Below, piece by piece: positions 44,541 to 63,743 of a stretch of 64,000 bases of DNA. The stretch spans positions 4,000,001-4,064,000 of the forward strand of contig OY761556.1 in assembly GCA_963664705.1 (NCBI GenBank), in the 5' to 3' direction. The DNA comes from Acidobacteriota bacterium (GTDB lineage: Bacteria > Acidobacteriota > UBA6911). Every line of letters starts with the position of its first letter. Positions within the stretch are counted from its first letter, which is position 1. Position numbers and translations under genes: made by a program. The notes below the pieces were generated by a model. It worked only from the letters and a program-made list of their open reading frames with translations, was not told the origin of the DNA and did no database searches.

Positions 44541-45869
44541 ATGGGGGAACAGGATCCGCGCTTATCCAGGACTTTTCACATACTGGCCAAACCGGCCGGA
44601 CCAATCTGTGATCTGAACTGCAGTTATTGCTACTATCTCGAGAAGGAAAAACTCTATCCCGGTAAGCTGCAACTGCGCGACTGGCGCATGCCGGAAGATG
44701 TGTTGGAAAGCTACATCCGTCAATACATCGAATCGCAACCGGGCACAACCATCAGTTTTGCCTGGCAGGGCGGAGAGCCAACCCTCCTGGGAGTGGATTA
44801 CTTTCGCCGCATTGTGGCGCTTCAACAAAAATATGCCAATGGCAGACAAATCGAAAACACACTCCAGACAAACGGCGTTCTGCTGGATGATCGCTGGGGA
44901 GAGTTTCTCGCCCGCAACAGCTTCCTTGTCGGACTGTCCATCGATGGACCGGCGCAGATTCACAACCGGTATCGCCGGGACAAGGGTGGTGCGGCAACCT
45001 TTGAGAAGGTCCTGCGAGGCCTTGGATACCTCAAGAAAAACGGTGTGGATTTCAACACGCTGACGGTGGTTCAAAAAGACAACTCCCATGCACCGTTGGA
45101 GGTTTACCGTTTTCTGAAGGAGATCGGCAGCAGGTTTATTCAGTTCATACCAGCCGTGGAACGCATTGCCGCTCAGCCGGGGCCGGAAGGCATGTCGCTG
45201 ATACCGCCCGATGCTACTTTACCCGCTTCGGTTTCGGAATGGTCCGTTGAACCATTGCAGTGGGGAGAGTTCTACTGTTCCATTTTTGATGAATGGGTCC
45301 GGAACGACGTCGGGAAAACTTATGTCCAGATTTTTGATGTGGCATTATCCGCATGGTTTGCCACAGAACCGATACTGTGCGTCTTTCAACGCTCCTGCGG
45401 AACAGCACTGGTAGTGGAGCATAACGGCGATCTGTACTCCTGCGATCATTTTGTTTATCCCCGAAATAAGCTGGGCAATATTTTGGACCATTCCATCGCC
45501 GAGCTCGCACACTCGCCGGACCAAATCCGCTTCGGACAGGACAAATCGGAACGATTGCCGGGACAGTGCAAAGAATGCAAATTCCTGTTTGCCTGCAATG
45601 GAGAGTGCCCCAAGCATCGTTTTGTCAAAACAAGTACTGAAGAATACCCTTTGAATTACCTGTGCCCCGGATACAAGCGCTTCTTCGGGCACATAGCCCC
45701 CTATATGGACTACATGGCTGCTGAACTCCGCGAGGAAAGGCCGCCATCCAATGTCATGGCCTGGATCCGCAATCGCGACCGGGGTATTCGTGATGGCAGA
45801 CAAACGGGCAGAAATGATTCCTGTCCGTGCGGTAGTGGCAGAAAATATAAACGCTGCTGCGGCAGGTAG
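44541..45869 (+). CDS. Anaerobic sulfatase maturase (radical SAM/SPASM) with C-terminal SEC-C motif
   Basis: KPAGPICDLNCSYCYY, WQGGEPTL, QTNG, GDLYSCDHF, CKEC..CNGECPKHR, GRNDSCPCGSGRKYKRCCG. Confidence 0.93.
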   Translation: MGEQDPRLSRTFHILAKPAGPICDLNCSYCYYLEKEKLYPGKLQLRDWRMPEDVLESYIRQYIESQPGTTISFAWQGGEPTLLGVDYFRRIVALQQKYANGRQIENTLQTNGVLLDDRWGEFLARNSFLVGLSIDGPAQIHNRYRRDKGGAATFEKVLRGLGYLKKNGVDFNTLTVVQKDNSHAPLEVYRFLKEIGSRFIQFIPAVERIAAQPGPEGMSLIPPDATLPASVSEWSVEPLQWGEFYCSIFDEWVRNDVGKTYVQIFDVALSAWFATEPILCVFQRSCGTALVVEHNGDLYSCDHFVYPRNKLGNILDHSIAELAHSPDQIRFGQDKSERLPGQCKECKFLFACNGECPKHRFVKTSTEEYPLNYLCPGYKRFFGHIAPYMDYMAAELREERPPSNVMAWIRNRDRGIRDGRQTGRNDSCPCGSGRKYKRCCGR

Positions 45870-45935
45870 GAAACAACGTGGAAGCGCGGAGGCTCGAAGA
45901 AATACTCCAAGCCTCCGCAAATCGCAAATCCTCAA

Positions 45936-47342
45936 TTACTTCGTTTTTGCGTTATAGTGATCGGCCAATTGGTCCGCAGTCCAGCCCGCAGAGGCGGCTT
46001 TTGGATCCTCCGGCAGCATGGTCGCGTTCCATGCTGCATAATCGGCCGCCAGCCTTTTGTACACTTCAGGCTGCACGTCCTTCAGGTTGGCTCTTTCCAG
46101 CGGATCATCAACGACATTAAACAGAAATGTATTGTTCCCCATCTGGAGCCATTTCATATCTCCATCCCGGACCGCCCGCTGTTCGTTGAATTTGTAACGC
46201 CAGTACAGCTTTCGCCGTACAGGGGCTCCATTCTTGACCAGCACGGGAGCCAGGCTCACACCGTCGGAAGGATAATCCGGATCAGGGCGCGTTCCGGCCA
46301 GCTCAAGCAGCGTCGGCGCCCAGTCCATTGTAATGGCCACCTGGTCGGTAACGCTGCCCGGACGGATATGGCCCGGCCAATGCACCAGCGCAGGGACCCG
46401 CAGCCCGCCTTCCAGCAATTCGGTTTTCATGCCGGTAAAGGGCCAGCGGTCAGAAAAGCGCTCCCCGCCATTGTCACTGGTAAAAATGACGATCGTCCGG
46501 TCCGCTATGCCACTGGATTTCAATGTCTGGATCACACGGCCGATCTGCAAATCCAACTGCCCAACCATCTGCGCATAGGTTTTCTGCGAACCTCCATCCA
46601 GGTGATACAACGAACGCAGATTTTTGGAGACCTCCTCATCCCCAGGCCCTTCCCATGGCCAGTGCGGCGCATTGAAATGCAGGCTGAGGAAGAAAGGCTT
46701 CTTACCTTTTGCATAGTCGCTGATGACCTTTACCGCGCGATCTCCCAACAGATCCGTAAGGTAGCCTTTCGGCTCAATTCTCTGATCGTCGTCCCAGAGA
46801 TCGGTGGGATCTTCCTTCTTCGTACCGAATTTGTGCGAGAAATAATCCACCCCGCCTCCGCGGAACCCCCAGAAATGATCGTAGCCGCATTTCGTCGGAA
46901 GATATTCCGGCGAACTCCCCAAATGCCATTTCCCGATCAGGGTTGTTCCATAGCCGGCCTTTTTCAGAATTGATGGCAGCGTCGGATGCCCTTTCGGAAT
47001 GCCGACCTCTTTCATGCCCAGCGGCTCCTCCAGTCCGACCGGAATCCGGTACTGATACCGGCCCGTAATCAAAGCGGTTCGAGTCGCCGAGCACACGGAT
47101 GAATTGGCATAAGCCTGCGTAAACTTCATCCCCCCGGCAGCCAGCCGATCGAGATTGGGAGTTTTATAGTCGCGCCGACCGTAGCAGGAAAGGTCGGCAT
47201 ACCCCAGATCATCCGCCACGATGAACACAATGTTCGGCGGCGGTTCGGCGGCATTGGCCTGAAGGTTCCTGCTTAATGAAAAAACTACCGGAGCTGCCGC
47301 GGCTTTGAGAACATCCCGCCGCGTAATTGACGACTTGATCAC
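45936..47342 (-). CDS. Tat-exported Cys-type sulfatase
   Basis: TRRDVLK Tat motif, PNIVFIVADDLG, CSATR (FGly motif) ALITGRY, GKWHLG, FTSDNG; AGGAGG RBS. Confidence 0.93.
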   Translation of the reverse strand: MIKSSITRRDVLKAAAAPVVFSLSRNLQANAAEPPPNIVFIVADDLGYADLSCYGRRDYKTPNLDRLAAGGMKFTQAYANSSVCSATRTALITGRYQYRIPVGLEEPLGMKEVGIPKGHPTLPSILKKAGYGTTLIGKWHLGSSPEYLPTKCGYDHFWGFRGGGVDYFSHKFGTKKEDPTDLWDDDQRIEPKGYLTDLLGDRAVKVISDYAKGKKPFFLSLHFNAPHWPWEGPGDEEVSKNLRSLYHLDGGSQKTYAQMVGQLDLQIGRVIQTLKSSGIADRTIVIFTSDNGGERFSDRWPFTGMKTELLEGGLRVPALVHWPGHIRPGSVTDQVAITMDWAPTLLELAGTRPDPDYPSDGVSLAPVLVKNGAPVRRKLYWRYKFNEQRAVRDGDMKWLQMGNNTFLFNVVDDPLERANLKDVQPEVYKRLAADYAAWNATMLPEDPKAASAGWTADQLADHYNAKTK

Positions 47343-50063: not shown

Positions 50064-52277
50064 ATGAAAAATCGAAGCAGGGTTTATGCGCTGTTGATTG
50101 CAGGGGGACTTCTCCTGGGCAGCCTTTGCCTGTATGGCATTGGGCAGCGGGAGCAGTTGACGCCCCTTTCCGAAGCACCGGTTGCGCCTAAGGGGACTGA
50201 AATCGGCGACTTGCTTCGAAAATGGTACGCGAATGGAACGGCGGCCGGGAATACCGGCGACTATTATGACAACAGGGACGGAGGCCATTCCCTTCTGGAC
50301 CTTGCGCCTTACCCACAGCTTCAGAAAGTCGAGTACACTGAGGAGCAAATTAAGGCCCGTCAACACTGGGGCCGGCAGCAGCAGGTTCTCCCATTTGTCG
50401 TTTTCGGCAATTCCTCGACCTCGGCGCCTCCCGAATCGAGTGGAAGCAATGTGCGCAGCTATTACACCGATCCGCGAGGACTCCTCTTTCTGTTTGCCGA
50501 GTATGCCGCAAACAACCTCTACATCTATCCCGAACACATGGATCATGACCCCGGCCACAACGGCTCGGGCGGATACGGGGATCTCCTCCCGACCAACACT
50601 CCTTACCTGATCACCTCTCAGGGCTCTTCAGGAACGGATCAGCCATTCATGAAGGCATTGCCCTACGTCCTGGCAGCTTTCCATCCGGAGGTGAAAAAGA
50701 AACTGATACAGTCCGGCCTGCTGATGCCTACCATCCAAATGATTTTGCGGGTAACCGGCAAACAGTTGTCCGGAACCAAAGACTACCTTACGGGCAAGGC
50801 GCATCCATCAGTCTTTTCGGGAGACTATGTAAACGCTCTTGCAATGGTGGAAATGGCGCATGGCATCACTCTCTCCAATCTCCCCCCCATAGCCGTCATC
50901 CGAGTTGTCAAGGAAGAGGCACCGGTCAATGGAGTGGATTATTTTGAGCCCGGATACACGGAACACCTGGGCGACACGCCGTCGGTTATGGCACGCGTAT
51001 TCCGTGGAGCCGGCAACAGCCGCAAGCTGGTTATAAGCGCCGAAGGCAGTCGGGATGTAAACAAGCGGCCACTCAAATATCACTGGGCCATCCTGCGCGG
51101 CGACTCCAATCGTATCAAGATCGATTATTTGAATACGGAGCAGTCGGTAGCCGAGATAACAATCCCCTACCAGCCCAGGAAACCGATTGGAGATAATCCC
51201 ACATTGGAATCCAACCGCGTTGACATCGGCATTTTTGTTCACAATGGTGTCTACTATTCGCCTCCGGCCTTTCTCACCTACTATTCGCTGGATAATGAAT
51301 CAAGAACCTATCGAGCTGACGGCCAGCCGGTGGATATTGGCTACGGAGCCGGCAGTTGCCAGCTTTCCATAACCAACTGGCTTGGATTTTTCGACCTCCT
51401 CGAACCCGGTGCAAACACCTGGGCCTCCCGCTTTCTGCAAAGTCAGTTCAAGCCCGAGGAACTTGCCGCATTGATCCAGGTGGCCACCGATTTTCGGAAA
51501 CAGCATCAGGCTTTTCTCGATGCCCAGAGCATTCTCGAAAAGACGGATAAGGGGGAGCCGGGAGCCATACAGGCGGCATCCAAGGCGGTGGAGGATGCCA
51601 AACAGGCAGAGTCCCAGATCCTGCAAAGAAAGATCCTAAAATCGAATCTGGCAGCATCGGAATTCATTCAACGTGCTCTCACCGAACTAATGCGGAATCC
51701 CAATCTCTGGCGCACCAATGCCTCCGACCTTGGGACGTCGTATCGGTCCGCGGATATTGAATCCAAAGATGCCTTGGATCAGGTTCGAAAGAAGCTTGTG
51801 CAGTTTGGCGTGGCGGAGAATGTGGAAACACCCCACTTGCGCGTCAAGATGGTTCAGTCCGGCGCGCTGACGGACTTTGAATGGCGACTCCTTCAGGAGT
51901 TCAATGGAACTCTGATAAGCCGATTGATTTTCCCCGGAGTCGTGGAGGTCAAATGGCGGGAGAATTATGTGGATTTTCGGCTGGCAGCAAAAAAGGACTG
52001 GCGCGACATCTATAGCTATTCTCCCAACGGAATCATGACCGGCTGGCGTCGACTCCAACCCGAAGGCGTCACCGAATTTAACTCGGAAGGCGCAATCATC
52101 CTGGAAAAGGATGCGCAGGGGCGGTGTATTCGGGGGCGTGCCGTTCGTTATGAATCGGAGCCGGACAAACGCGACTCCAACGGGCTCGCGCGACGAGTCA
52201 AGCTGATTCCGACCGATACCATCCACACTTACGAATATGCCGGCCCGGACGATTGGAAAGGCCGGGTGCGTCCATGA
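50064..52277 (+). CDS. Large secreted or membrane-anchored hypothetical protein (737 aa)
   Basis: Long ORF with an N-terminal hydrophobic segment; motif-like stretches DYYDNRDGGHS, YPEHMDHD, SQGSSGTD; family not recognised. Confidence 0.8.
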   Translation: MKNRSRVYALLIAGGLLLGSLCLYGIGQREQLTPLSEAPVAPKGTEIGDLLRKWYANGTAAGNTGDYYDNRDGGHSLLDLAPYPQLQKVEYTEEQIKARQHWGRQQQVLPFVVFGNSSTSAPPESSGSNVRSYYTDPRGLLFLFAEYAANNLYIYPEHMDHDPGHNGSGGYGDLLPTNTPYLITSQGSSGTDQPFMKALPYVLAAFHPEVKKKLIQSGLLMPTIQMILRVTGKQLSGTKDYLTGKAHPSVFSGDYVNALAMVEMAHGITLSNLPPIAVIRVVKEEAPVNGVDYFEPGYTEHLGDTPSVMARVFRGAGNSRKLVISAEGSRDVNKRPLKYHWAILRGDSNRIKIDYLNTEQSVAEITIPYQPRKPIGDNPTLESNRVDIGIFVHNGVYYSPPAFLTYYSLDNESRTYRADGQPVDIGYGAGSCQLSITNWLGFFDLLEPGANTWASRFLQSQFKPEELAALIQVATDFRKQHQAFLDAQSILEKTDKGEPGAIQAASKAVEDAKQAESQILQRKILKSNLAASEFIQRALTELMRNPNLWRTNASDLGTSYRSADIESKDALDQVRKKLVQFGVAENVETPHLRVKMVQSGALTDFEWRLLQEFNGTLISRLIFPGVVEVKWRENYVDFRLAAKKDWRDIYSYSPNGIMTGWRRLQPEGVTEFNSEGAIILEKDAQGRCIRGRAVRYESEPDKRDSNGLARRVKLIPTDTIHTYEYAGPDDWKGRVRP

Positions 52278-52308: not shown

Positions 52309-52605
52309 TCAGCCGCCGGCTATGGAGCCGATGATCAGAAGCGGTTTCTTTCCCGACACCACATCATTCGGCAACAATACTTCCGGCGGCTCATTCGAGA
52401 AATCCCTTTCGCATGCGTAGAAGCGAATAAATGGACGCCGCTTTTTCGTCACGTGATCGCGAATCGTGCCTCTGAGTACCGGGTAGTGATCCTCGATTGC
52501 ATCCAATGCCGCACTCAATGTCGGCTCTGCATCGAGTTCAAACGACAACATCTCTCCCGTACGAGAAAGCTCTCGCAAATGAAACGGGAGCACCACTTTT
52601 ATCAT
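52309..52605 (-). CDS. MoaD/ThiS-like ubiquitin-fold sulfur carrier
   Basis: VVLP..LR, YPVLRGTI, C-terminal IAGG di-glycine. Confidence 0.88.
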   Translation of the reverse strand: MIKVVLPFHLRELSRTGEMLSFELDAEPTLSAALDAIEDHYPVLRGTIRDHVTKKRRPFIRFYACERDFSNEPPEVLLPNDVVSGKKPLLIIGSIAGG

Positions 52606-52616
52606 CGCATCCCCTC

Positions 52617-53780
52617 TCAGTTGAGTGTTTGCGCTTCCACGGAAAGCACGGGAGGCAAATCCCTCACAACCGCTGTCCAGTCATCGCCGGCATTGGAGGA
52701 CACATACAATTGCCCGCCAGTGGTTCCAAAATAAACCCCGCAAGGATCCAGTGAATCGACGGACATAGCTTCACGCAATACATTCACATAGCAGTCGCGC
52801 TGCGGCAGACCATTGGAAAGAGCTTCCCATTCATTGCCGCCGCTCCGACTTCGGTACACCCGCAGCTTTCCTTCGGGCGGATAATGCAGAGAATCGCTGG
52901 TGATGGGGACAACATAAATCGTATTCGGTTCATGCGCATGAATCTCGATGGGAAAACCGAAATCGGTGGGAAGGTTCCCACTGATTTCGTGCCACGATTC
53001 GCCGGCATCATCACTCCGGTTCACATCCCAGTGCTTCTGCATGAACAATACATTCGGACGGGATGGGTGCATGGCAATCCGATGCACGCAATGCCCCACA
53101 TCCGAAGTGGAATCCGCAAGTTCGTAAGCCGACCTCAGGCCACGGTTTATCGGCCGCCATGTCTCTCCCCCATCATCGGTGCGAAAAACGCCGGCAGCGG
53201 AAATTGCCACGTAGAACCGTCGGGGATTGACGGGATCGAACACAATAGAATGCAACCCCATGCCGCCTGCACCCGGCTGCCACAAATGTCCCTTCGCGCC
53301 ACGCAATCCGGGCAACTCCTGCCATGAGCACCCACCGTCCGAACTTCGGAACAATGCGGCATCTTCGACTCCGGCATAGACAACATCCGGATTATTCAAT
53401 GAAGGCTCGAGGTGCCAGACCCGTTTGAACTCCCACGGCCGAGCCGTTCCGTCATACCACAGGTGGGTTCCGACCTCTCCTTCGTATAAAAACTTATTGC
53501 TTTCGATTTTGGGCATCCCGCCATCGGAAGTGATTCGATTCCCGGCTGGCGGATCCCAGTGCTTCCCACCATCCTCGGAGCGCTGAATGATCTGCCCAAA
53601 CCATCCACTCGTTTGCGAAGCATAGATCCTGTCAGGATTCACCGGAGACCCTTTGACGTGGTAGATTTCCCAGCCTCCAAAATGAGGCCCATCGACATGC
53701 CATTCTTTGCGGCTTCCATCGGATGTCAGAATGAACGCACCCTTTCGTGTGCCGACCAGTACTCGAACTTGGCTCATCAT
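52617..53780 (-). CDS. BNR/Asp-box beta-propeller (sialidase-like) protein
   Basis: VGTRKGAF; repeated SxDxGxxW Asp-boxes ([40 protein letters not shown]); start ATG 53780. Confidence 0.88.
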
Positions 53781-53996: not shown

Positions 53997-55730
53997 ATGG
54001 CGGGTCGTAGACTGAAGATGGTACCGATCCTTGCTCTTGTGTTTTCTGCACTGTCCTTCGCACTGCCATGGGCCGGCAAGGACGGCTCAATCGATGTTAC
54101 GGTGGTGGACACAGGCAACCGCCCCATTGGTGGCGCTACAGTTGTACTCCAGGGACCGATGCAAGTCAGAACCGTGTCCAACAGTGTCCCCGTTCCTGCT
54201 CAAATCATGATGCCACCCGAAACCAACGCCACGACAGACACGAGCGGCCATGCAACATTTCAAGGCCTCGCTTCGGGGCAATATAGCCTGCGAGTTCAAA
54301 AAGACGGATATGTTGGATCCGCAACCCCAAGAAATACCAGCTTGCCTTCGTTCGTTTTGACGACGGTCTTCATACAGGAAGGCCAGGCTCCTCAGCAGAT
54401 GGAGTTGACTCTCGAACGAGGAGCCACCATCAGCGGAAAAATCTCCAACTCAAAGGGATCTCCGGTGGCAAACGCGCGAGTATATGCGGGGGTAGTGGGC
54501 TTTCAGAATGGCCGCCGGACGTTTCAGTCACATGCATCCGCACAGACAGATGATCGAGGCGATTTCCGGCTCTTCTGGTTCGGTCCGGGCGAATATTACA
54601 TCGTATGCGAATGGATGCAGCGGTCCGGCCCCGTCATGGCACCCGATTTTGTCCGAACGTTCTACCCTGGAACAACCGAATTTGAAAAATCGAAACCGGT
54701 ACGTATCACGGGCACAGATGCAGCCGGAATCAACTTCAAAGTGCAGAATATGAAAACCTATCGCATTCACGGCAAGGTGATCGATCTGCCCTCATCCCCC
54801 ACAGGTTCCCGCATGTTGCCTACATTTACACTTGCAGCACGCGATTCGAACGAATTGGATATGCCCACATCGTCTTCACCCCCCAGCCGAATGAACTTTG
54901 AAACCGGGGAATTCGAGCTTATGGGTGTCGCGCCCGGGTCCTGGACTCTTTTCGCAACTTTGATTCAGCCCAATGTTCGAAGCGATCCAGGGCGACCCAA
55001 TATGCCCCAATACCTCGGCGGACGTGTCTCTATCGACGTACGCGATAAGGATGTTAACGATCTGCAAATTGCAATGTTTTCCGTAAATATTAAGGGGAAG
55101 GTGATTTTTCCGAAATCCGGCACCGCGATTTTCTCTGGCCTGCCGATCCAATACATACGGGTCAGCCTGCAGCCGCGCGAAGGAATTCCATCCTTCGTTT
55201 ATGGAGCAACGCAATCTGCGCCCATAAGTAATGAAGGGGACTTTACTTTTCCCGGCGTACCGCCAGGCAGATACGGCATTTCCATCTCGGCTCCCGGGAC
55301 CATTGAGGACATACAGGTCGGCTCCAAAAGCATCATGAACGATGGCATCATCAACGTTGGAGCGGAGTCCCCCGACTTTATTAAGATCATTCTTGCAGAA
55401 AGAACGAGTGGAATTTCAGGTTTGGTTACCGGAATCAGCCCCAGTACAACAGTCGAACAACTGTGGTCAACACGTGTCGTGCTGGTTCCCGATCCACCAA
55501 GACGGCAGAATACTATACTCTACCGATCCGTCGAGCTTTCAGGCATGCGCGGTAATTTTTTCATCAGTTCCGTTCCTCCGGGCAGCTATAAGATCTTTGC
55601 CGTGGAAGGACTGCAGCAGGGAGCCGAACTGGATCCGGCATTTATTGCCCGCTATGAGAATCGCGGAGTCACGATCCATGTTTCGGACCAGGGGGTTAAT
55701 TCAATACAAGTCCGATGGATTCGAAAATAG
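53997..55730 (+). CDS. Secreted carboxypeptidase-regulatory-like (Ig/transthyretin repeat) protein
   Basis: Signal peptide; repeats such as TTDTSGHATFQGLASGQY, TDDRGDFRL..PGEY, TFYPGT, FPGVPPGRY, SVPPGSYK; GGAGGA RBS. Confidence 0.8.
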   Translation: MAGRRLKMVPILALVFSALSFALPWAGKDGSIDVTVVDTGNRPIGGATVVLQGPMQVRTVSNSVPVPAQIMMPPETNATTDTSGHATFQGLASGQYSLRVQKDGYVGSATPRNTSLPSFVLTTVFIQEGQAPQQMELTLERGATISGKISNSKGSPVANARVYAGVVGFQNGRRTFQSHASAQTDDRGDFRLFWFGPGEYYIVCEWMQRSGPVMAPDFVRTFYPGTTEFEKSKPVRITGTDAAGINFKVQNMKTYRIHGKVIDLPSSPTGSRMLPTFTLAARDSNELDMPTSSSPPSRMNFETGEFELMGVAPGSWTLFATLIQPNVRSDPGRPNMPQYLGGRVSIDVRDKDVNDLQIAMFSVNIKGKVIFPKSGTAIFSGLPIQYIRVSLQPREGIPSFVYGATQSAPISNEGDFTFPGVPPGRYGISISAPGTIEDIQVGSKSIMNDGIINVGAESPDFIKIILAERTSGISGLVTGISPSTTVEQLWSTRVVLVPDPPRRQNTILYRSVELSGMRGNFFISSVPPGSYKIFAVEGLQQGAELDPAFIARYENRGVTIHVSDQGVNSIQVRWIRK

Positions 55731-55766
55731 GGTACAATCCGGCAAACAACTTCGGAGGCGGCAACA

Positions 55767-58166
55767 GTGGACTATCGACCATGGACGTGGAAGGTGCCGG
55801 AAAACGGCGCGGAATTGAGTCGGACCATGACTCGGCAGGATGCGTTTGAACGAGTCAGCGGCCAGGCGGTCTTTACTCGAGATGTACAACTCCCCGGAAT
55901 GCTGTATGCCAAGATACTTCTCTCCCCATACGCCAGCGCAAGAATCAAGAGCATCGACACCAGCAGGGCTCTGGCTCTTGTAGGCGTTCGCGACATACTC
56001 AAGTATGACGATCCGGATATTGCCTTCGACAACGAAAACGGGCCGTACTTCGAAGTGTCCCGCAATTACAATATCCTGACCTTGCCGGGAACCGCGGATT
56101 TCTTCGAACACCCGATGGGCGCAGTTGTCGTGGCCGATAGCGAAGAAATTTGCGATCGCGCGCTCCGGCTATTAAAAATCGATTGGGTGGAAACGCCGTT
56201 CATCCTTGATATGGCGGAATCGCTCAAGCCGGATGCACCCAAAGTCATGCCGGAAGTAAAGCGGCTGAATCCGAAAGCCCAGGAACCTAACACTATTCTG
56301 ACTGACAGATCTGAAATTGGGAATGTGGAGCAGGGCTTTTCGGAGGCGGATAAGGTCGTCGATTACACGATTACGCGCGCCAGGAACACCACTGCCGGAG
56401 TCGAACCGATTGTATGCGTTGCCCAGTGGAGGGGCGAATTCCTGGATTTGTGGGTTCACCACCAGGACCTTCCCCAGGCGGTACTGACAACTCCGAATAC
56501 CATCCGTGAAAAAGCACTGCCGCCCGTTGCGGATTGGACCAAGATTACGGTTACCATGCCTTACCAGGGTTCCTGGTTCGGCGGATTTTCATGGCTGGCG
56601 TACTCCTATGCTTTCGTGCGGCTTGCCGCCATTGTTGCGAAGAGAGCCGGCGGAAAGCCCGTAAAGCTGCTCTGGGATGAAAGCGGCTATTATTGCGGCG
56701 GCGACGATGCCGGCATCTATAAATGCAAAGTCGGCGCCAAAAAGGACGGGACTATTACAGCCCTTCATTGGCACATGCAGGGAATCCGGAACCCTGCCGT
56801 CGAGAAGACGCACGTCAGCACAAAGATCCCGAACATCCTGGGAACCCAGGAGTGGGCTCTGATCAACAAGGGACACAATATGTGCTTCCGGCATGGTGCC
56901 CATACATGCGTTCCGCACAATGTCATGTTTGATCGCGTGGCAGCGGAAATGGGTCTGGACCCAACTCTGGTGGCACTGAAAAACGACGGATGCAATGGAC
57001 ATGACTGGGATTGGGTGACGCGCTACCAGAAAGAAAACAGTTTCCCTGAAAGATGGAGCCTGAAGGAAGTAATCGAGAAAGGGAAAAAGGCTATCGACTG
57101 GGACAGGAAATGGCACGCCCCCGGGACAAAGAAACTCTCAAACGGGAAGATGCACGGCATGGGATTCATCCACGTAAACGAATGGCACTGGCATGCTCCC
57201 ATACCGGGCATCTCATTCGCGTGCGTGGCATTGCGCGAAGGCAAAGCTGCCATTATTGCGGTCCGCTGCGATATGGGAATCGATACGGAGTCGAGCGCCC
57301 GTTTGAGTGTGGCGTCAGAAATCGGACTGAAATACGAGGATACCGTTATCCAGGAACGCCGGTCCGACAACAGCAATTTTCACTTCTGGCAGCCCGGAGG
57401 CTCTTTCGGAACAAATTACATCACGACGCAGCTCATCCTGGCCGCAAGGGAAATCAGGAAAAAGCTTCTGGAATATGCAACCAAGCCCAAGCCTGCGGTG
57501 TTCCTGACTCCGTCACAATCCGCACCATTCCCGAATCTGAAGCCGGAAGAGCTCGATATTAAAGACAGTGTGATTTTTGAAAAAGCCAATCCCCAAAACA
57601 GGCGAACGGTGCGTGAAGTAGCGGATCCCTGGTGGGTTCTTGATCCACCTATATCCCATCCCGTGGCAGGAAACCTGTACGGGCTGACCGTCGACGGCAA
57701 ACCGGATCCGGAAATGTATGCAATGGCCCGGCAAGCCCACTTTATTGAAGTCGAAGTCGACACCGAAACCGGAATGGTGGATGTAACCCAAGTCGTCTGC
57801 GTCAATGACGTGGGACATCTCTTCAACCGCAAAGGAGCGGAAGCGCAACAATACGGCGGTTCCGTCATGGGGCTCAGCCGGAGTGCCATGGAAGAGCATG
57901 TGTTCTGCCCGCGAACCGGAGTTGCGCTGAATTACGATCTGGTCGGTTATCACATTGGGACAATGAACGACTACCCATCGGCGCAATGTCTGATTAACGA
58001 GAGCCACCTGGGATACGCCGCCTATGGTTCCTACGGAATCGGGGAAAACATCGGCGCCAGCATGTCGGGAGTCACCACCCCTGCCATTTTCAATGCGACC
58101 GGCAAGTGGGTACTGGACTATCCGACAACTCCCGATCGTGTCCTGAAGGCTCTGGGCAGAATTTAG
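55767..58166 (+). CDS. Xanthine dehydrogenase/aldehyde oxidoreductase family molybdopterin-binding subunit (divergent)
   Basis: RQDAFERVSGQAVFTRD..PGMLYAKILLSP..ARI, DMG, AHFIEVEVDTETG, DVG, QQYGG, GIGE, PAIFNATG..PTTPDRVL; GTG start with GGAGG RBS. Confidence 0.9.
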   Translation: MDYRPWTWKVPENGAELSRTMTRQDAFERVSGQAVFTRDVQLPGMLYAKILLSPYASARIKSIDTSRALALVGVRDILKYDDPDIAFDNENGPYFEVSRNYNILTLPGTADFFEHPMGAVVVADSEEICDRALRLLKIDWVETPFILDMAESLKPDAPKVMPEVKRLNPKAQEPNTILTDRSEIGNVEQGFSEADKVVDYTITRARNTTAGVEPIVCVAQWRGEFLDLWVHHQDLPQAVLTTPNTIREKALPPVADWTKITVTMPYQGSWFGGFSWLAYSYAFVRLAAIVAKRAGGKPVKLLWDESGYYCGGDDAGIYKCKVGAKKDGTITALHWHMQGIRNPAVEKTHVSTKIPNILGTQEWALINKGHNMCFRHGAHTCVPHNVMFDRVAAEMGLDPTLVALKNDGCNGHDWDWVTRYQKENSFPERWSLKEVIEKGKKAIDWDRKWHAPGTKKLSNGKMHGMGFIHVNEWHWHAPIPGISFACVALREGKAAIIAVRCDMGIDTESSARLSVASEIGLKYEDTVIQERRSDNSNFHFWQPGGSFGTNYITTQLILAAREIRKKLLEYATKPKPAVFLTPSQSAPFPNLKPEELDIKDSVIFEKANPQNRRTVREVADPWWVLDPPISHPVAGNLYGLTVDGKPDPEMYAMARQAHFIEVEVDTETGMVDVTQVVCVNDVGHLFNRKGAEAQQYGGSVMGLSRSAMEEHVFCPRTGVALNYDLVGYHIGTMNDYPSAQCLINESHLGYAAYGSYGIGENIGASMSGVTTPAIFNATGKWVLDYPTTPDRVLKALGRI

Positions 58167-58268
58167 GAGCTCAGGATTTCGCCGCGGATTTGCTGGCTCT
58201 TTGGGACGGGAAGCATTATTGATACCAATAGCTGACGGCACATCCCATTGGCGTTGAGAGGTTGTTCA

Positions 58269-60101
58269 ATGAAACCTGATCCGGAGATATCGAGAAGGAG
58301 TTTCCTCAAAGAGAGCAGTTCCGCCATCGGCGGTGCGGCGCTATCTGGAGCCGCGGCTGCGGCCGAAGCTGCGCCGGGCGCCAAACTCACGCTTCTGGAC
58401 CCCACCGGCGCGCAGGAAATCACGCATCTTTTCGCCCCGCGCCTGCCAGACCTGAATGGCAAAATCATCGCGGAACTGGCTGTGGATCCTACAAAATGGC
58501 AGCCTCACCGGACAATGCCATATATTGAAGAGCTCCTGAAGAAGCAATTCCCTTCCATCCGGTTCATCCCCATGCAGGAATTCCCAATGGGGATTCAAAT
58601 CAGCGAGGACAGGGTTATTCAGCTGGTGGCGGCAAAGAAGCCGGATGCCGTTATTATCGGCAACGCGGGTTGAGGGTCGTGCGCTGCCGCCAGCGGAGGT
58701 GCCGCTGCAAAACTGGAAAAACTCGGAATTCCCACCGTCATCATTCAACGCAAGGAGTTGATGGCCGCCACACGTCAGGCCATTATGGGCCAAGGACTCC
58801 CGGCCGAAGCACCCTGGGTTGTATTTGAATACCCGTTATTCCTTGTCGACAGCGATCTGAGCCCGATCAAGGGAAAATACTCTGAGATTGTGCATGCCCT
58901 GACTCAATGGCAGCCTCAAAACAATAGGAAAGGAATTTACAATAAAGCACCCGTGGAAGTTACGGGAAAGGACTATGAGGATGCGCTGGCAAAGGCCAAT
59001 TACCTGTTCCTGAAGAAAAACTGGAGTGACGGGCTAGCCCTTTTTCCGCCCACTCGAAACCGCGTGAACTGGATACTGACGGGAACGGATCATAGCCCGG
59101 ACGAGAAGGTCGGCGGAGGATCCGGAAAGGTGGCGCCCAAGGAGGGCATCCTCACCTATGAAGTTCTTGCGACCTGTATGGCGATGGCCGGAGGGCGCCC
59201 GGAATATATGCCGGTGGCTGAAGCCGTGTGCAAGACTATCGTCGAGAAACAGAATACGCTGATGACCAGTTCTGGTGGGGCTTATCAGGGAATCTGCGTC
59301 AATGGGTCCGTGGCAAAACAGATTCGCTTGAATTCCCGCTTCAGTCTTTTCGGCCCAAATCCAAACCATCCGGCAGGCGGAGCCATCGGCCGGTGCATTT
59401 CGCTTGTACTGATGAATGTCGGCGGTCATGTGGCCGGACAGGGAACTATTGCGGAATACGGGGAAATGCGCTTCACCGGTCTGTGTTTTGCGGAAAACGA
59501 GGAGAGTCTTCCCAAAGGCTGGTCCACATTCACGGAAGACAAATACAAACGCCCCAAGGGCACCAATTCGGCAACCTTTTTCATCACCTTCCTGGGCGGC
59601 CTGCGTCCTTTTGTACACAGGGGCTCGGGAGATGAACCGAATTTCGAAACCGAAATGAAGGAGAGCTTCTTCCGGGCGGCCGCCGTAATGAAAAATATCT
59701 GGACGACAAGCCACAGCGCAACTCCCGGCTCCCCCGGCATCATGTTCTACAATTCAATGATTTGCGGCAATATGGCAAAGATCGGATGGACGAAGGAAAA
59801 GATCCGGGCCCATCTGGCGGAAGTTCTTTTTGCGACTGCGGAGGAAATAAAGGACCGGACGGATGTGCAGCGATCTGCGGCCGCACTGAAGGTCGATATG
59901 TCCAATTTGCCACCGCGAATCCCCTTGATGACCGACTCCAGAAACATCAATTTTATTTGCGCCGGCGGAGACCATCCTTCACTGGCCATGTGGCTGGCTG
60001 GCGTCACCTTTCTGGGAAATACGGAGATCCAGTTGCCCGGGAATTGGGAGGCGTTACTTGCACAAGCCGAGCAGGACCTGGGGCCGATTCCTGTGTTGTG
60101 A
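58269..60101 (+). CDS. Tat-signal UGSC-family selenoprotein (single 610-aa ORF; Sec encoded by TGA 58671-58673)
   Basis: ORF-track ORFs 58248-58673 and 58758-60101 are in the same frame, separated only by one TGA. Read-through gives DAVIIGNAG-U-GSCAAASGGAAAKLEKLGIPTVII with no other stop. SRRSFLK Tat motif; downstream SECIS-like hairpin. Confidence 0.85.
58691..58707 (+). promoter_or_regulatory. Candidate bacterial SECIS element
   Basis: CAGCGG-AGGTG-CCGCTG stem-loop; apical loop begins 23 nt after the UGA and has G in its second position, consistent with the bacterial SECIS consensus. Confidence 0.65.
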
Positions 60102-60171
60102 CAAAGGTCCCGGGAATACTCGAGCCGGATCACACTTTTTCGTCAGCTTTGAATACCCAGGCCTGCAGCGT

Positions 60172-60199
60172 GAAGGGGGCAGCGAATGCTGCCCCCTTC
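60172..60199. terminator. Hairpin between convergent genes
   Basis: GAAGGGGGCAGC-gaat-GCTGCCCCCTTC, 12-bp perfect stem. Confidence 0.7.
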
Positions 60200-60203
60200 C
60201 TGC

Positions 60204-63200
60204 CTAAAACTGGAACTTAAGGACTGCCTGTCCCTGGCGCGCTCCGGAAGGATTGGCGGTATTGATGTACCCGAATCCACCGGTCGGCTTGCCGCTGGTA
60301 TCCCTCGTCTGCGTGGACAGCGCATTTGTCGATGAGGGTCCGGGAACATTCGTGCGGTTGAAAATATTCTGAAAGTCAATTCTCAGGCTGATTTTCATCC
60401 CTTCCCTGAAATGGAAGATCCGCTCAATATTCATGCTCTCGGCGGGCACTCGCCTTGACCGGTAGTCGTCGTAATACACGGCCCCGGTTCCAAACGTGCC
60501 TGGTGCAGGGTCGGACCATGCAGCAGGATTCAGGACGAAGTCCTTGTTCGGATCAAAGCAAGTCGTACAGTTGATATCCTTTGTCCAGAGCGGCTGGCCG
60601 GGAACGCGGTTCGCATAGGTGCTCATATAAAGCACCGAAGAGAGCGCATTCTGAGCAACCGGCGCCGCTATCGGCGTTCCGCTTGCATACTGAACCATAG
60701 CTCCAACCGTCCAGCCGCTGATGGCAAGCGAGAGAGGTTTATAAATGTTCAATTTGGGAAGTCGATAGTTCCCAGCAAACATGAACACGAAGGGCCGGGA
60801 GAATGACGACAGATACTTGTTGGTTCTGCGGTCAAAAACATTGTTCACCGCTCCGCCGCCGGTCCCGCCGGTTTCGTTTTCGGAGCCCATCATGAGCTCC
60901 TTTGCCCAGGTAAATGTGGAGGTGAAGTCGAAGCCATGGGAAAACCGTTTGCTGGCCTTTACCTGCAGCGCGTCATACCAGGTTCTGCCAAGTGGAGCCC
61001 AACGATAGGTAATGTTGCCGTACTGCGGGAATGGTCGCAAGGACTGGGCCAAAGTCTGGGTCATAAGGAATCCCGAATAAGGCGCTTTAAATCCGCGAGC
61101 CTGAACCGCAGCGCTACTCAGGGCCGAGGTCAGCAGGTCACGATCAGTCTTCAGCGTGACATCCAGTCCCTTGCTTTGCAGATATTCCGGAGTCAGCGCA
61201 TTGACGTTGATCAGATTTCCATTGACCCACCAGGCGCCACGGTTGCCGACATAGGAGACTTCGATCGCCAGGTCTTTATAGATCTCCCGCTGGATGCCAA
61301 TGCTCCACTGGATCTGCCGCGGCGGCCTTCCGGCATTTCCGTCGACGGCGGAAACCGCCTGGGCTGCCTTGTTCGGAATTACAAACAGGCCCGCATCATA
61401 TACCGGCCACATGCCCGGAGTCGGAGGGCCATCCTGAAGCAGCATCGCCGCAGTTCCGCTGCCCGTAGGTGCGCTGAATGGATTGTTGGATCCGTTCCCC
61501 AAAGAGGTCCGGTTTTCATTTGCGGTTTGTCCGTAGGCAATGCCCCAGCCTGCGCGCAGAACGGTTTTGGGAAGGAACTGATAAGCAATCCCCAGCCGTG
61601 GCCCGAAGGCAAACGGATAATTCCTGCCGAACCTCACATCATTTCTTTCAAAGATCATGGCTCCTAGAAGGCCACCGGCATTGGGATTCGCCGTCGTTGG
61701 AGAAAAGCTCGGAATGCGACCGTACGTATCGTGCAAATATGTCTGATAGTCGTATCGCAGACCATAATCCAATGTCAGCTTGCGGGTCACCTTCCAGCTG
61801 TCCTGTGCAAAGAATGCCCAGGACTGCTTGCCCTGCCGCACCGCACTCGGAACCCCTATGTTGCCGTTGTCCACCATGCCAAGAAGGAAGCTGGCATAGG
61901 CAAACCCAATCGATCCCCCGGCCAATTGCGAGCTTTTCCCGAAAGTCGAGGGGAGCCCGGTCTGGCTGGTGGAAAAATTGTAAACACCATAGGAATTGTC
62001 CAACATAATGGTCGGAAATCCGTCCAATCTCATTTCCGCGCCAAATTTGAGAGTGTGGTTGGATTTGACCCAGGTGAAACTGGCAGCCGCCTCCGGCCGT
62101 TCCATATGTGAATCGCTTTGTGTTGTCGGGCCGGCCGCAGCGCCCAATCTTGTTCCCAGCCCTCCTCGAGTCGTACTGGCCGTTCCACCCAGTACTGGGA
62201 ATCGATTGCTATAGGATCCTTTGAGGCCGAGTTCTTTCAGCTGATCGAATTCCGGAAGAACATAATCCGGCCAGACAGAGCCATGAAAGCCAATCTGCAA
62301 ATGCAGGAGCTTCGTCGGGGACAGAGTCTGATCAAAACTCAACCGCAGCGTTTTGGAGTTTGTGTTGGTGGGCCGGAAATTGGTCAGAGGGGTTTTTATC
62401 CCGTCATCGCCCCCTCGAGCCACTCCTTCAAAACTCGCGCCGTACGCCGATATTTTGGAATGAGCACTGATGTACCAGTCAAGCTTTGCGGATGGAACGT
62501 TCTGATGGCCAGGATAGGGCCATGGATCCAAATAGTTATTGATTAGTTTGGTCTGATCCGTTGCGTGCGGGATAAATCGGTCCTGAACGATACGTGCAAC
62601 CGTGTCAAACCGCTCTACCGGAATCTGATTATTCACGAACATATCCCGGTATCCCGCGATGCCGTTTACCGTGCGGGTTGTTGCCGGATCATATAGCTGG
62701 CCTTCTTTGATCGTACGCCCGAAATCGTCCATGCCGAGTGTCTTGCCGGTGTAGGCTTCGCTGAAATCACCGTTGCGCATTTTGTCGGTGGGCATCGTCC
62801 ACGAAGTATTGACCATCTGAGTTCTACGCGAGGCTTCAAAATTCACAAAAAAGTACATCTTCTTCTGCCGCCCGTCCCAAAGTCCCGGGATAGTGACAGG
62901 GCCGCCGACATTAAAGCCTGGAACAAACACTCTGCTCTTTGCCTTGATGCCGGTATAGGGCTGCGCTGAGTTCAATTTTTCATGGTTCCAGTACAGGTAC
63001 GCGCTGCCATGATATTCGCTGGTGCCCGACTTGGTGGTCATGTTAACGATCCCGCCGCCCGCCTGCCCGTACTCTGCTGAATAATTGCTGGTCAAGATCG
63101 TCACTTCTTCAAGTGCATCCACGCTCGGTTGAGAGTCTTTTGTGGTCCCAATGGAAGTTGCATTGTTCGCTTCCATGCCTTCCACTCTCATGGATTGCGT

Positions 63201-63743
63201 AAAGTTTGGCGCCCCGTTCACACGGAAGATAGCCATCTGGGTAACGCTGGTTCCGGGGATCAATCTCCCTGCAGCCAATGGGTCGCGAACCCACTGGTTG
63301 AAGCCGACGACGGGGAGATCATCGAGCTTCTTTGTGCTGACGTTGTGGCTTATCTCCCCACTCTCGGTTCTCAGCAGTGTCGCATCGGCTTCAACCGTCA
63401 CAACCTCGGCAAGATTCCCCACTTCAAGGGGAAGATCAATACGCAGGGTTTGCGACCCGATCACCGTAATTCCGGTCCGGACATACTGCTTGAATCCCTG
63501 GACTGTGGCAGTCAACTGGTACGCGCCCGCGGGAAGCTCCGACAGCGTATAGTTCCCGGTTTCGCTGCTCGCAGCCCGGTATTTTGCACCGGTCTCCACG
63601 TTGGAAGCTTCTATGGTGGCATTGGGGATTACCGCCCCCGCAGGATCAAGAACTGTTCCCGTAATAGCACCCCTCGTGCTCTGAGCGAAGGCAAACCCGG
63701 CCATCAGGAGCAGACAACAGGCCGAAAGGATCACTGAACGCAT
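60204..63743 (-). CDS. TonB-dependent receptor (Oar-like, N-terminal carboxypeptidase-regulatory domain)
   Basis: Signal peptide, GAITGTVLDPAGAVIP, PSVDALEE..NYSAEYG..GG..TKSGT..HG, FAQDSWKVT..LTLDYGLRYD, FGPRLGIAY, C-terminal LKFQF; GAGGAGG RBS. Confidence 0.93.
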   Translation of the reverse strand: MRSVILSACCLLLMAGFAFAQSTRGAITGTVLDPAGAVIPNATIEASNVETGAKYRAASSETGNYTLSELPAGAYQLTATVQGFKQYVRTGITVIGSQTLRIDLPLEVGNLAEVVTVEADATLLRTESGEISHNVSTKKLDDLPVVGFNQWVRDPLAAGRLIPGTSVTQMAIFRVNGAPNFTQSMRVEGMEANNATSIGTTKDSQPSVDALEEVTILTSNYSAEYGQAGGGIVNMTTKSGTSEYHGSAYLYWNHEKLNSAQPYTGIKAKSRVFVPGFNVGGPVTIPGLWDGRQKKMYFFVNFEASRRTQMVNTSWTMPTDKMRNGDFSEAYTGKTLGMDDFGRTIKEGQLYDPATTRTVNGIAGYRDMFVNNQIPVERFDTVARIVQDRFIPHATDQTKLINNYLDPWPYPGHQNVPSAKLDWYISAHSKISAYGASFEGVARGGDDGIKTPLTNFRPTNTNSKTLRLSFDQTLSPTKLLHLQIGFHGSVWPDYVLPEFDQLKELGLKGSYSNRFPVLGGTASTTRGGLGTRLGAAAGPTTQSDSHMERPEAAASFTWVKSNHTLKFGAEMRLDGFPTIMLDNSYGVYNFSTSQTGLPSTFGKSSQLAGGSIGFAYASFLLGMVDNGNIGVPSAVRQGKQSWAFFAQDSWKVTRKLTLDYGLRYDYQTYLHDTYGRIPSFSPTTANPNAGGLLGAMIFERNDVRFGRNYPFAFGPRLGIAYQFLPKTVLRAGWGIAYGQTANENRTSLGNGSNNPFSAPTGSGTAAMLLQDGPPTPGMWPVYDAGLFVIPNKAAQAVSAVDGNAGRPPRQIQWSIGIQREIYKDLAIEVSYVGNRGAWWVNGNLINVNALTPEYLQSKGLDVTLKTDRDLLTSALSSAAVQARGFKAPYSGFLMTQTLAQSLRPFPQYGNITYRWAPLGRTWYDALQVKASKRFSHGFDFTSTFTWAKELMMGSENETGGTGGGAVNNVFDRRTNKYLSSFSRPFVFMFAGNYRLPKLNIYKPLSLAISGWTVGAMVQYASGTPIAAPVAQNALSSVLYMSTYANRVPGQPLWTKDINCTTCFDPNKDFVLNPAAWSDPAPGTFGTGAVYYDDYRSRRVPAESMNIERIFHFREGMKISLRIDFQNIFNRTNVPGPSSTNALSTQTRDTSGKPTGGFGYINTANPSGARQGQAVLKFQF

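Follow-up and report, generated by a model that had tools for sequence, protein, structure and literature searches.

Does an orphan molybdenum (Mo) subunit of the xanthine dehydrogenase (XDH) family work together with the selenoprotein that is encoded directly behind it? This question is raised by a locus in a 64,000-nucleotide (nt) stretch of DNA from an Acidobacteriota bacterium (contig OY761556.1; hereafter the window), which corresponds to positions 4,000,001-4,064,000 of the source genome (G000), a single contig of 6.89 Mb. The Mo catalytic subunit (P0001; window positions 55767..58166, + strand, 799 amino acids) is followed by P0005 (58269..60101, + strand), a fusion selenoprotein of the UGSC family with a twin-arginine translocation (Tat) signal. 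We regard as probable the explanation that P0001 is a PaoC-like subunit in a shared system of the GAOR2/GAOR3 style, and that P0005 is a separately exported GrdB-related enzyme belonging to the same periplasmic catabolic guild.

P0001 and P0005 are the second and third of three co-oriented genes. The first one, P0002 (53997..55730, + strand), encodes a secreted-type repeat protein. The intergenic gaps are 36 nt between P0002 and P0001 and 102 nt between P0001 and P0005. No terminator-like site was listed in either gap, and a hairpin in the longer of the two does not stand out (z -1.06). The gene of a TonB-dependent receptor (P0003) converges on P0005, and genes of a BNR-repeat protein and a MoaD-like protein diverge upstream of P0002. 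An initial annotation, made from the sequence alone, had described this arrangement, and our re-analysis of the open reading frames (ORFs) of the window agrees with it in positions and strands.

The same annotation treated P0001 as an XDH-family Mo subunit with neither a signal peptide nor an adjacent 2Fe-2S or flavin adenine dinucleotide (FAD) subunit. Pfam analysis and inspection of the protein and its neighbours lead to the same result: P0001 has the hammerhead, MoCoBD_1 and MoCoBD_2 domains, exceeds the Pfam cut-offs for PF01315, PF02738 and PF20256, has no signal peptide by inspection, and is not adjoined by a 2Fe-2S or FAD subunit gene. Its closest solved relative is 5y6q_C (E 1.7e-30). 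The motif GIGE760 aligns with the GE of 5y6q_C and PaoC, and CFRHG aligns with MRAPG. We take Glu760 of this GxGE motif to be the catalytic residue and the Arg motif to be cofactor-binding. Thirteen NCBIfam models, among them XdhA, PaoC, 4-HBCR alpha, CoxL and the selenium-dependent XDH, all scored below cut-off (the best one 219 bits against 780, the PaoC model 164 against 1180).

P0001 is one of 24 Mo subunits of the source genome (23 hammerhead matches and one further large subunit); in addition, there are 10 FAD genes and 15 matches to Fer2_2. A quick tree with 38 rows assigns 15 of these 24 subunits, P0001 included, to a single clade (SH-aLRT 100). Only two clade members have adjacent iron-sulfur (FeS) and FAD genes; the other 13 are orphan. 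Four paralogues with 60-67% identity to P0001 are all orphan as well. The clade is present in 29/29 congeners and in 0/31 other genomes. Nine Mo paralogues (G000:C1 1700826, 2879775, 3012824, 3018959, 3085846, 4178301, 4706978, 5979711 and 5999553; loci L146, L148 and L149) carry G-I-S-H in place of GxGE and have no Arg motif in a fast alignment. Judging by these residues, the expanded subclade may have lost the catalytic Glu and adopted a different chemistry. The genome also has about 20 genes of the aldehyde:ferredoxin oxidoreductase (AOR) type, many of them behind Tat-4Fe-4S genes, a parallel expansion of the tungsten (W) type.

A search of the genome for orphan 2Fe-2S subunits, suggested in the initial annotation, was successful. 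There are six FeS+FAD pairs of the matching type in G000: four near-identical pairs with Tat signals (two of them orphan), one more orphan pair with a Tat signal, and one orphan pair without it. The orphan pairs lie at genome positions 67008, 4312849, 4337294 and 4345218. The best candidate partner is the orphan Tat pair at 4345218-4346934, 290 kb from P0001, with the Tat motif SRRDFLK in the FeS gene at 4346934. In other genomes, subclade members stand in operons with orthologues of this pair (FAD identity 68-81%) at six loci (L020, L025, L027, L055, L063 and L064), and in L027 the gene directly behind FeS and FAD encodes a P0001 orthologue with 83% identity. Three Mo genes surround one FeS/FAD pair in L020 and two in L027. 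The FeS partner has an RRxF(L) Tat motif in five of the six clade-linked loci. The FAD orthologue (identity at least 70%) was found in 27/29 congeners and in 0/7 other genera; of the 21 congeners that have a P0001 orthologue, 20 are among these 27. Because there are 15 Mo clade members for six matching pairs, and the clade is found in operons with such a pair elsewhere, it is likely from the sequence data that P0001 assembles with a shared FeS/FAD pair encoded elsewhere in the genome. TatC is encoded in G000, as are two copies of XdhC, neither of them adjacent to P0001.

The FeS gene at 4346934 is frameshifted in the assembly by a one-base difference at 4346692 (L140:3192). We rejected the possibility that it is a pseudogene: the extra base is present in the contigs of 4/4 runs, which restore the reading frame, the runs representing one sample that is possibly the source of the assembly. 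The frameshift is probably an assembly error. In the four near-identical pairs (L147:1008-2678, L148:1590-5823, L149:17406-19091 and G000:C1:4312849-4314537) the identity is 92-97% for FeS and 99-100% for FAD subunits. Behind the Tat peptide, their FeS subunits contain an insert that resembles a C2H2 zinc finger (PF13894, 23.9 bits, below cut-off).

Each part of the locus has a precedent. A signal-less Mo subunit accompanied by Tat-bearing 2Fe-2S and FAD subunits is known from Escherichia coli PaoABC, which oxidises aromatic aldehydes in the periplasm, and from the related aldehyde oxidase 5y6q, and the accessible part of PMC4273604 describes hitchhiker Tat export for PaoABC. Unlike in PaoABC, the genes considered here are not in one operon, there is no adjacent gene of an XdhC/PaoD chaperone, the active-site loops of P0001 are divergent (QGSWFGGFSW, CFRHG), and there are many paralogues per small-subunit pair. 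In Sulfolobus tokodaii, the large-subunit genes of GAOR2 and GAOR3 are distant from a single M/S pair that serves both, as shown biochemically (PMC4726530, accessible part). Similarly, the large-subunit genes of G000 are separate from the small-subunit pairs and outnumber them (15 members, 13 of them orphan, for six pairs). The difference is that in the archaeal case, as far as it is described in that part of the source, two large subunits use one pair and no export is mentioned, whereas here 15 subunits face six pairs, most of which bear Tat signals and which fall into three sequence types. By analogy, several Mo subunits of G000 may share one pair.

The second member of the linked pair, P0005, is recovered as a 610-amino-acid protein when the in-frame TGA at 58671..58673 (+ strand) is read as selenocysteine (Sec) 135, which joins a 134-amino-acid ORF with the downstream ORF and creates an AG-U-GSC motif. 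P0005 matches Pfam UGSC (PF24696) with 67.3 bits at a cut-off of 25, and its score with the NCBIfam equivalog NF041046 is 44.2 bits, below the cut-off of 125. The TGA is kept in 7/7 congener orthologues that span the site and in 27/27 metagenome loci in which the motif was found. Cys replaces Sec at the same position in homologues P0073, P0083 and P0129, and full-length Cys homologues exist. The genes selB, selA and selD (above cut-off) and tRNA-Sec are located at 3072596-3078309 of G000. Because the UGA is conserved, Cys homologues exist and selABCD are present, P0005 is almost certainly a genuine selenoprotein, as initially annotated; a true stop codon was rejected. The model of the read-through protein is one confident fold (pLDDT 92.6). 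A hairpin of seven pairs with a 5-nt loop at 58689..58708 (+ strand), a candidate for a Sec insertion sequence, is compatible with that role: 92.9% of cells are paired over 30 sequences, the covariation is no better than in shuffled alignments, and the hairpin differs from the minimum-energy fold of the P0005 copy. The SelD protein (L149:4566-6143) has a fused C-terminal AhpD-like domain and a Cys-rich N-terminus, and ARAGORN lists two more tRNA-Sec candidates, at 1625651 and 6559014.

Three parts are distinguished in P0005: a Tat peptide (approximately residues 1-33), a GrdB/PrdB-related Sec domain (approximately 38-215, with U135-x-x-C138), and an unnamed C-terminal domain of 390 residues (approximately 221-610). 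The Tat signal slightly exceeds the TIGR01409 cut-off (17 bits against 16.7), and P0005 is predicted to be exported by means of it. The RRxFL motif is retained in UGSC orthologues that do not adjoin a Mo gene (L036, L037 and L047). The genome encodes 35 UGSC copies, 31 of them with one in-frame TGA. According to a simple rule based on hydrophobicity and motifs, 26 copies have Sec-type (general secretion) signal peptides, eight have none (two of these are borderline), and P0005 is the sole copy with a Tat motif. Thus there is a puzzle: the one Tat-type copy of 35 is the copy behind a signal-less Mo subunit.

In the accessible text of PMC2398784 and PMC13188914, UGSC is an uncharacterised selenoprotein family that ranks among the most abundant in the environment. 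P0005 shares with PF24696/NF041046 the UxxC motif, and the accessible part of PMC2398784 reports UGSC fused with a domain that has no name ('Unknown_1'); P0005 differs in its Tat signal, in being one of 35 copies in a genome, and in its score below the NCBIfam cut-off. Comparison of the selenoprotein by hhalign with 14 sequences of the GrdB family gave 97.1% (E 7e-11, 89 columns), with the UxxC motifs aligned and Sec placed on Sec. With the UGSC profile, 10 of the 14 GrdB-family sequences ranked higher than all non-UGSC proteins in a background of 5,499 proteins; in the opposite direction, the GrdB-family profile placed P0005 first. By these comparisons, the Sec segment of P0005 is homologous to GrdB, selenoprotein B of glycine/sarcosine/betaine reductase, and to PrdB of D-proline reductase. 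P0005 differs from these proteins in lacking the rest of the GrdB domain and in having its own C-terminal domain and an export signal. No gene of a pyruvoyl partner or other grd/prd component (GrdA/GrdC, PrdA/PrdC) is adjacent to P0005; a genome-wide search for these genes was not made. GrdB is described as binding the substrate and releasing ammonia, and PrdB as performing reductive ring cleavage (PMC13188914, accessible part). Given this chemistry, an attack of the Sec nucleophile on a C-N or C-S bond would be the most economical mechanism for P0005.

The 50 listed structural matches of the Sec domain (Z 8.6-10.2; the top one Z 10.2, root-mean-square deviation (rmsd) 3.2, 143 aligned residues) are mostly Rossmann/flavodoxin-like alpha/beta proteins, and other folds may lie beyond those listed. 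The fold suggested for UGSC in the accessible part of PMC2398784 is, in contrast, thioredoxin-like. The best match of the C-terminal domain among 48,161 chains has Z 4.7, which is not a clear match and not a proof of a new fold; its only Foldseek match is a class I fumarate hydratase (E 6.6e-4, TM 0.22, rmsd 18). Foldseek with the whole P0005 gave no match at E<=0.001, and a sequence search of the PDB gave no match of note. In a protein atlas, a natural Cys homologue used as the query matched no clusters other than unnamed ones and those labelled UGSC, and UGSC is the sole Pfam family shared by 38 P0005 homologues.

The family is strongly expanded in this genus, with 9-58 UGSC matches per genome in 29/29 congeners and 0-2 in seven other genera of the same family. 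Three genomes reached via deltaproteobacterial/Desulfobacterales loci have 7-28 copies. The accessible text of PMC2398784 and PMC13188914 connects UGSC neither with GrdB nor with Mo enzymes, the subscription literature being largely outside the search. The main text of a preprint on UBA6911 (10.1101/2021.04.09.439258) has 0 occurrences of "seleno", "xanthine" and "molybd", and its supplements may bear on the matter; the main text of PMC13326102 has 0 occurrences of UGSC.

How stable is the adjacency of the two genes? Orthologues were counted in metagenome-assembled genomes that are 71-100% complete, with up to 21 candidates per genome scored. A P0001 orthologue (at least 77% identity) is found in 21/29 congeners and a P0005 orthologue in 8/29, all within those 21. 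A Mo gene is directly upstream of the UGSC orthologue in three of the eight (G002, G007 and G014). From metagenomes, the first 29 of 50 UGSC loci were examined, which gave 24 close orthologues (at least 70% identity), 16 with an identifiable upstream gene and eight uninformative. The upstream gene is a Mo subunit in nine of the 16 informative contigs, an AOR in one and another gene in six; some contigs may share a species. In the five linked loci for which the gap was obtained, the Mo and UGSC genes are on the same strand, 58-107 nt apart. The gene of a 698-amino-acid protein with no Pfam or NCBIfam match (G000 4227433; L143:1433-3529) has homologues as an alternative upstream neighbour of UGSC in G005, G029 and four metagenome contigs. 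The linkage was also viewed from the Mo side: among 33 loci, 21 have P0001 as the best match, and 18 of these, after three were dropped, extend at least 1.4 kb downstream. By this survey of UGSC neighbourhoods, which had been proposed at the outset, the linkage is partial, and weaker from the Mo side than from UGSC, as is discussed below.

At the family level, UGSC genes occur more often than expected in the vicinity of Mo/W oxidoreductases and of TonB receptors, although not in every genome. In G000 we counted UGSC genes within three genes of a target and compared the counts with circular shifts (27 tests, uncorrected). A TonB receptor is near 10/35 UGSC genes (1.3 expected, p<0.0002), an AOR near 5/35 (0.7 expected, p 0.001), a Mo gene of the P0001 clade near 3/35 (0.5 expected, p 0.03), and a canonical XDH operon near 0/35 (0.3 expected). 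In a second test, UGSC genes within 5 kb of a Mo gene were counted, using rounded genome sizes and omitting split rows (three UGSC and three Mo in G028, one Mo in G062). The numbers are 5/23 in G014 (0.8 expected), 7/55 in G028 (2.9), 3/21 in G029 (0.8), and 4/28 in G062, a genome of a different phylum (0.5). In the 11 loci where the sister Mo paralogue 440229 is the main match, an FAD oxidoreductase and a Cys-type UGSC lie upstream in eight, the UGSC standing two genes away. UGSC, Mo and FeS/FAD genes are interleaved in a 120-kb stretch of G028 and in similar stretches of G006 and G014, with TonB receptors in G028 and G006. The G028 island (G028:C12:84000-203400; L051-L056) contains about 15 UGSC and seven Mo genes, FeS/FAD genes, Tat flavoproteins and TonB receptors, and is the best place to look for substrate clues.

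If the explanation given above is correct, P0001 would be a swappable catalytic subunit that assembles in trans with a Tat-2Fe-2S/FAD pair, the best candidate being the one at 4345218-4346934. As in PaoABC and the Sulfolobus GAOR2/3, with the export taken from the former, the Mo enzyme would hitchhike to the periplasm via the Tat signal of its FeS partner, oxidise or hydroxylate an aldehyde or a heterocycle, and pass the electrons through 2Fe-2S and FAD. In P0005, Sec135 would attack a substrate carbon as in Stickland reductases, with C-N or C-S cleavage, Cys138 would resolve the intermediate, and the C-terminal domain would presumably bind the substrate. The weakest step is the last one, in which a carbonyl product or the substrate of P0005 may be handled by the neighbouring Mo (or W) oxidoreductase. 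P0001 and P0005 would take part in one kind of breakdown pathway without forming a complex with each other.

A number of observations weigh against this explanation. The homology to GrdB spans only about 90 columns, and P0005, as judged by sequence, is not a GrdB, because PF07355, the GrdB/PrdB domain, has no match in it (nor anywhere in G000). The pairing in trans, and the choice among the six pairs, are read from gene context, and the pair at 4337294 has no Tat motif. The Mo gene does not adjoin the UGSC orthologue in G005, G017, G023 and G029 or on a short contig of G004, and no UGSC orthologue was found in 13 of the 21 genomes with a Mo orthologue, these being incomplete and represented by up to 21 scored candidates each. 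In only 2/18 loci does a UGSC gene come after the Mo orthologue, both of them DNA of linked congeners, and 7/16 informative metagenome contigs have a non-Mo gene upstream of UGSC. In the distance test G000 shows 3/35 (1.1 expected, p 0.10) and G017 1/18 (0.6 expected); moreover, island clustering and kinship inflate the enrichment figures, and the null models are uncorrected for both. The Tat signal found only in P0005 among 35 copies is not accounted for. Much of this fits the assumption that the Mo and UGSC genes are mere neighbours, an ancestral adjacency kept in a sub-lineage, with the Mo subunit using shared FeS/FAD and the selenoenzyme unrelated to it. With a genome of 6.9 Mb that contains 35 UGSC genes and 24 Mo genes, other genes upstream of the UGSC orthologue in four congeners, and enrichment weak in G000 and absent in G017, we consider this a serious possibility, if a clearly less probable one. 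It does not easily explain the repeated independent UGSC-Mo neighbourhoods that involve different paralogues and two phyla, the short same-strand gaps, or the contrast between canonical XDH operons, with no UGSC nearby, and the P0001 clade and AORs, with three and five.

The initial annotation suggested instead that the selenoprotein is an export or redox partner of the Mo subunit. In this case P0005 would escort the signal-less P0001 or exchange electrons with it, replacing or joining FeS/FAD. Tat exports folded complexes (PMC4273604, accessible part), P0005 is the only Tat-type copy and lies just behind the Mo gene, and 8/8 genomes with its orthologue have the Mo orthologue too; the last fact is unremarkable, since 21/29 congeners have it. 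The Tat-FeS/FAD partner tracks the clade better (27/29 against 8/29) and directly precedes the P0001 orthologue in L027, and RRxFL is kept where UGSC is not beside Mo. The selenoprotein is not needed as an exporter or electron partner, because the clade pairs with a conventional Tat-2Fe-2S+FAD partner in six loci and an orphan orthologue of this pair is present in G000; pairing of the Mo clade with conventional subunits encoded elsewhere was the very finding that the initial annotation named as contrary to its proposal. Prediction of a complex of Mo residues 195-799 with the UGSC C-terminal domain (the Sec domain excluded) scored 0.00 twice, but the controls did not fold either, so that this speaks neither for nor against the escort role. 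We find the escort role unlikely. Least probable is a dedicated module of five to seven genes (Ig-like protein, Mo subunit, selenoprotein, TonB receptor, BNR protein, MoaD) newly assembled in this strain. Co-orientation and the 36-nt gap of the Ig-like gene agree with it, as does the receptor subfamily of P0003, which is close to Mo-clade or UGSC genes in 3/4 G000 loci and for about 6/16 genes in G028. However, a search of 60 relatives at E<=1e-15 did not find the Ig-like protein, none of P0002, P0003, BNR and MoaD stands beside any of the 21 Mo-orthologue loci, and in L097 UGSC runs directly into the next gene with no receptor at the site. The Ig-like protein, the receptor and the BNR/MoaD pair were rejected as conserved parts. 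The genes themselves are confirmed, but their five-gene grouping is not conserved, and the Mo subunit is orphan in its place, not in the genome. The arrangement exceeds chance in part for the Mo-UGSC pair and not for the remaining genes. Of the proposal that both enzymes act on a substrate imported by the receptor, a weaker form remains, a common pathway, with the partial Mo-UGSC link and the enrichment of UGSC near Mo/W and TonB genes in its favour; P0003 as a conserved neighbour does not remain.

The neighbouring genes thus appear to be local additions in the case of P0002 and P0003. P0002 (577 amino acids, three CarboxypepD_reg repeats, hydrophobic N-terminus) is a single-copy gene in G000 with a GC content at third codon positions of 0.547, compared with 0.62-0.63 in the Mo, UGSC and receptor genes, and is likely a strain-specific insertion. 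P0003 (60204..63743, - strand) is a TonB-dependent receptor of the acidobacterial OMP_b-brl_4 type by Pfam; its subfamily was found at E<=1e-120 in one of five genomes searched. Between the convergent UGSC and receptor genes there is a strong hairpin, likely a terminator (60165..60203, no strand assigned; z -3.55, 1/200 shuffles equally stable). The BNR/Vps10-repeat beta-propeller protein (52617..53780, - strand; Pfam) and the small MoaD/ThiS-like protein (52309..52605, - strand) are bystanders. The latter ORF has no Pfam or NCBIfam match, and we assume its MoaD-like nature from the C-terminal Gly-Gly (IAGG) alone. Among 70 loci screened, P0002, P0003 and MoaD have no close match (P0003 at best 27%), and a BNR orthologue is near a UGSC orthologue in one (L101).

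Further genes deserve mention. An AprA/SdhA-like flavoprotein gene just outside the window (G000 4067248-4069194; L142:4248-6194), accompanied in relatives by a small ferredoxin, recurs near Mo and UGSC orthologues (L003, L004, L005, L011, L014, L023, L044, L046, L049, L097 and L100) and is a steadier neighbour than the TonB receptor or the Ig-like protein. A secreted-type protein of 737 amino acids with no Pfam or NCBIfam match (window 50064-52277) has a 56% homologue near the Mo orthologue in L011. At 44541-47342 of the window there is what we take from its motifs to be a radical-SAM protein similar to anaerobic sulfatase-maturating enzymes, convergent with a presumed Tat-type sulfatase.

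The locus is a compact test set, which combines a GrdB-like Sec site, a confidently modelled C-terminal domain, and a neighbour from a class of Mo/W aldehyde or heterocycle oxidoreductases. The principle of shared small subunits, known for two archaeal enzymes, would be extended to a library of 15 Mo subunits, predicted to be periplasmic, nine of them apparently without the catalytic Glu. A bolder idea, which we think rather improbable as a whole, is that the genus and some Desulfobacterota degrade imported compounds in the periplasm by a combinatorial system, of a type not found in the literature searched. The exported selenoenzymes related to GrdB, dozens of them (9-58 per genome), would cleave C-N or C-S bonds of these compounds and feed interchangeable Mo subunits that operate on a few shared Tat-2Fe-2S/FAD modules, while the unique Tat copy, P0005, would be exported in the folded state, in a Mo/Se complex with the adjacent Mo subunit. 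If true, the UGSC family, abundant but function-less, would gain both a chemistry and a partner.

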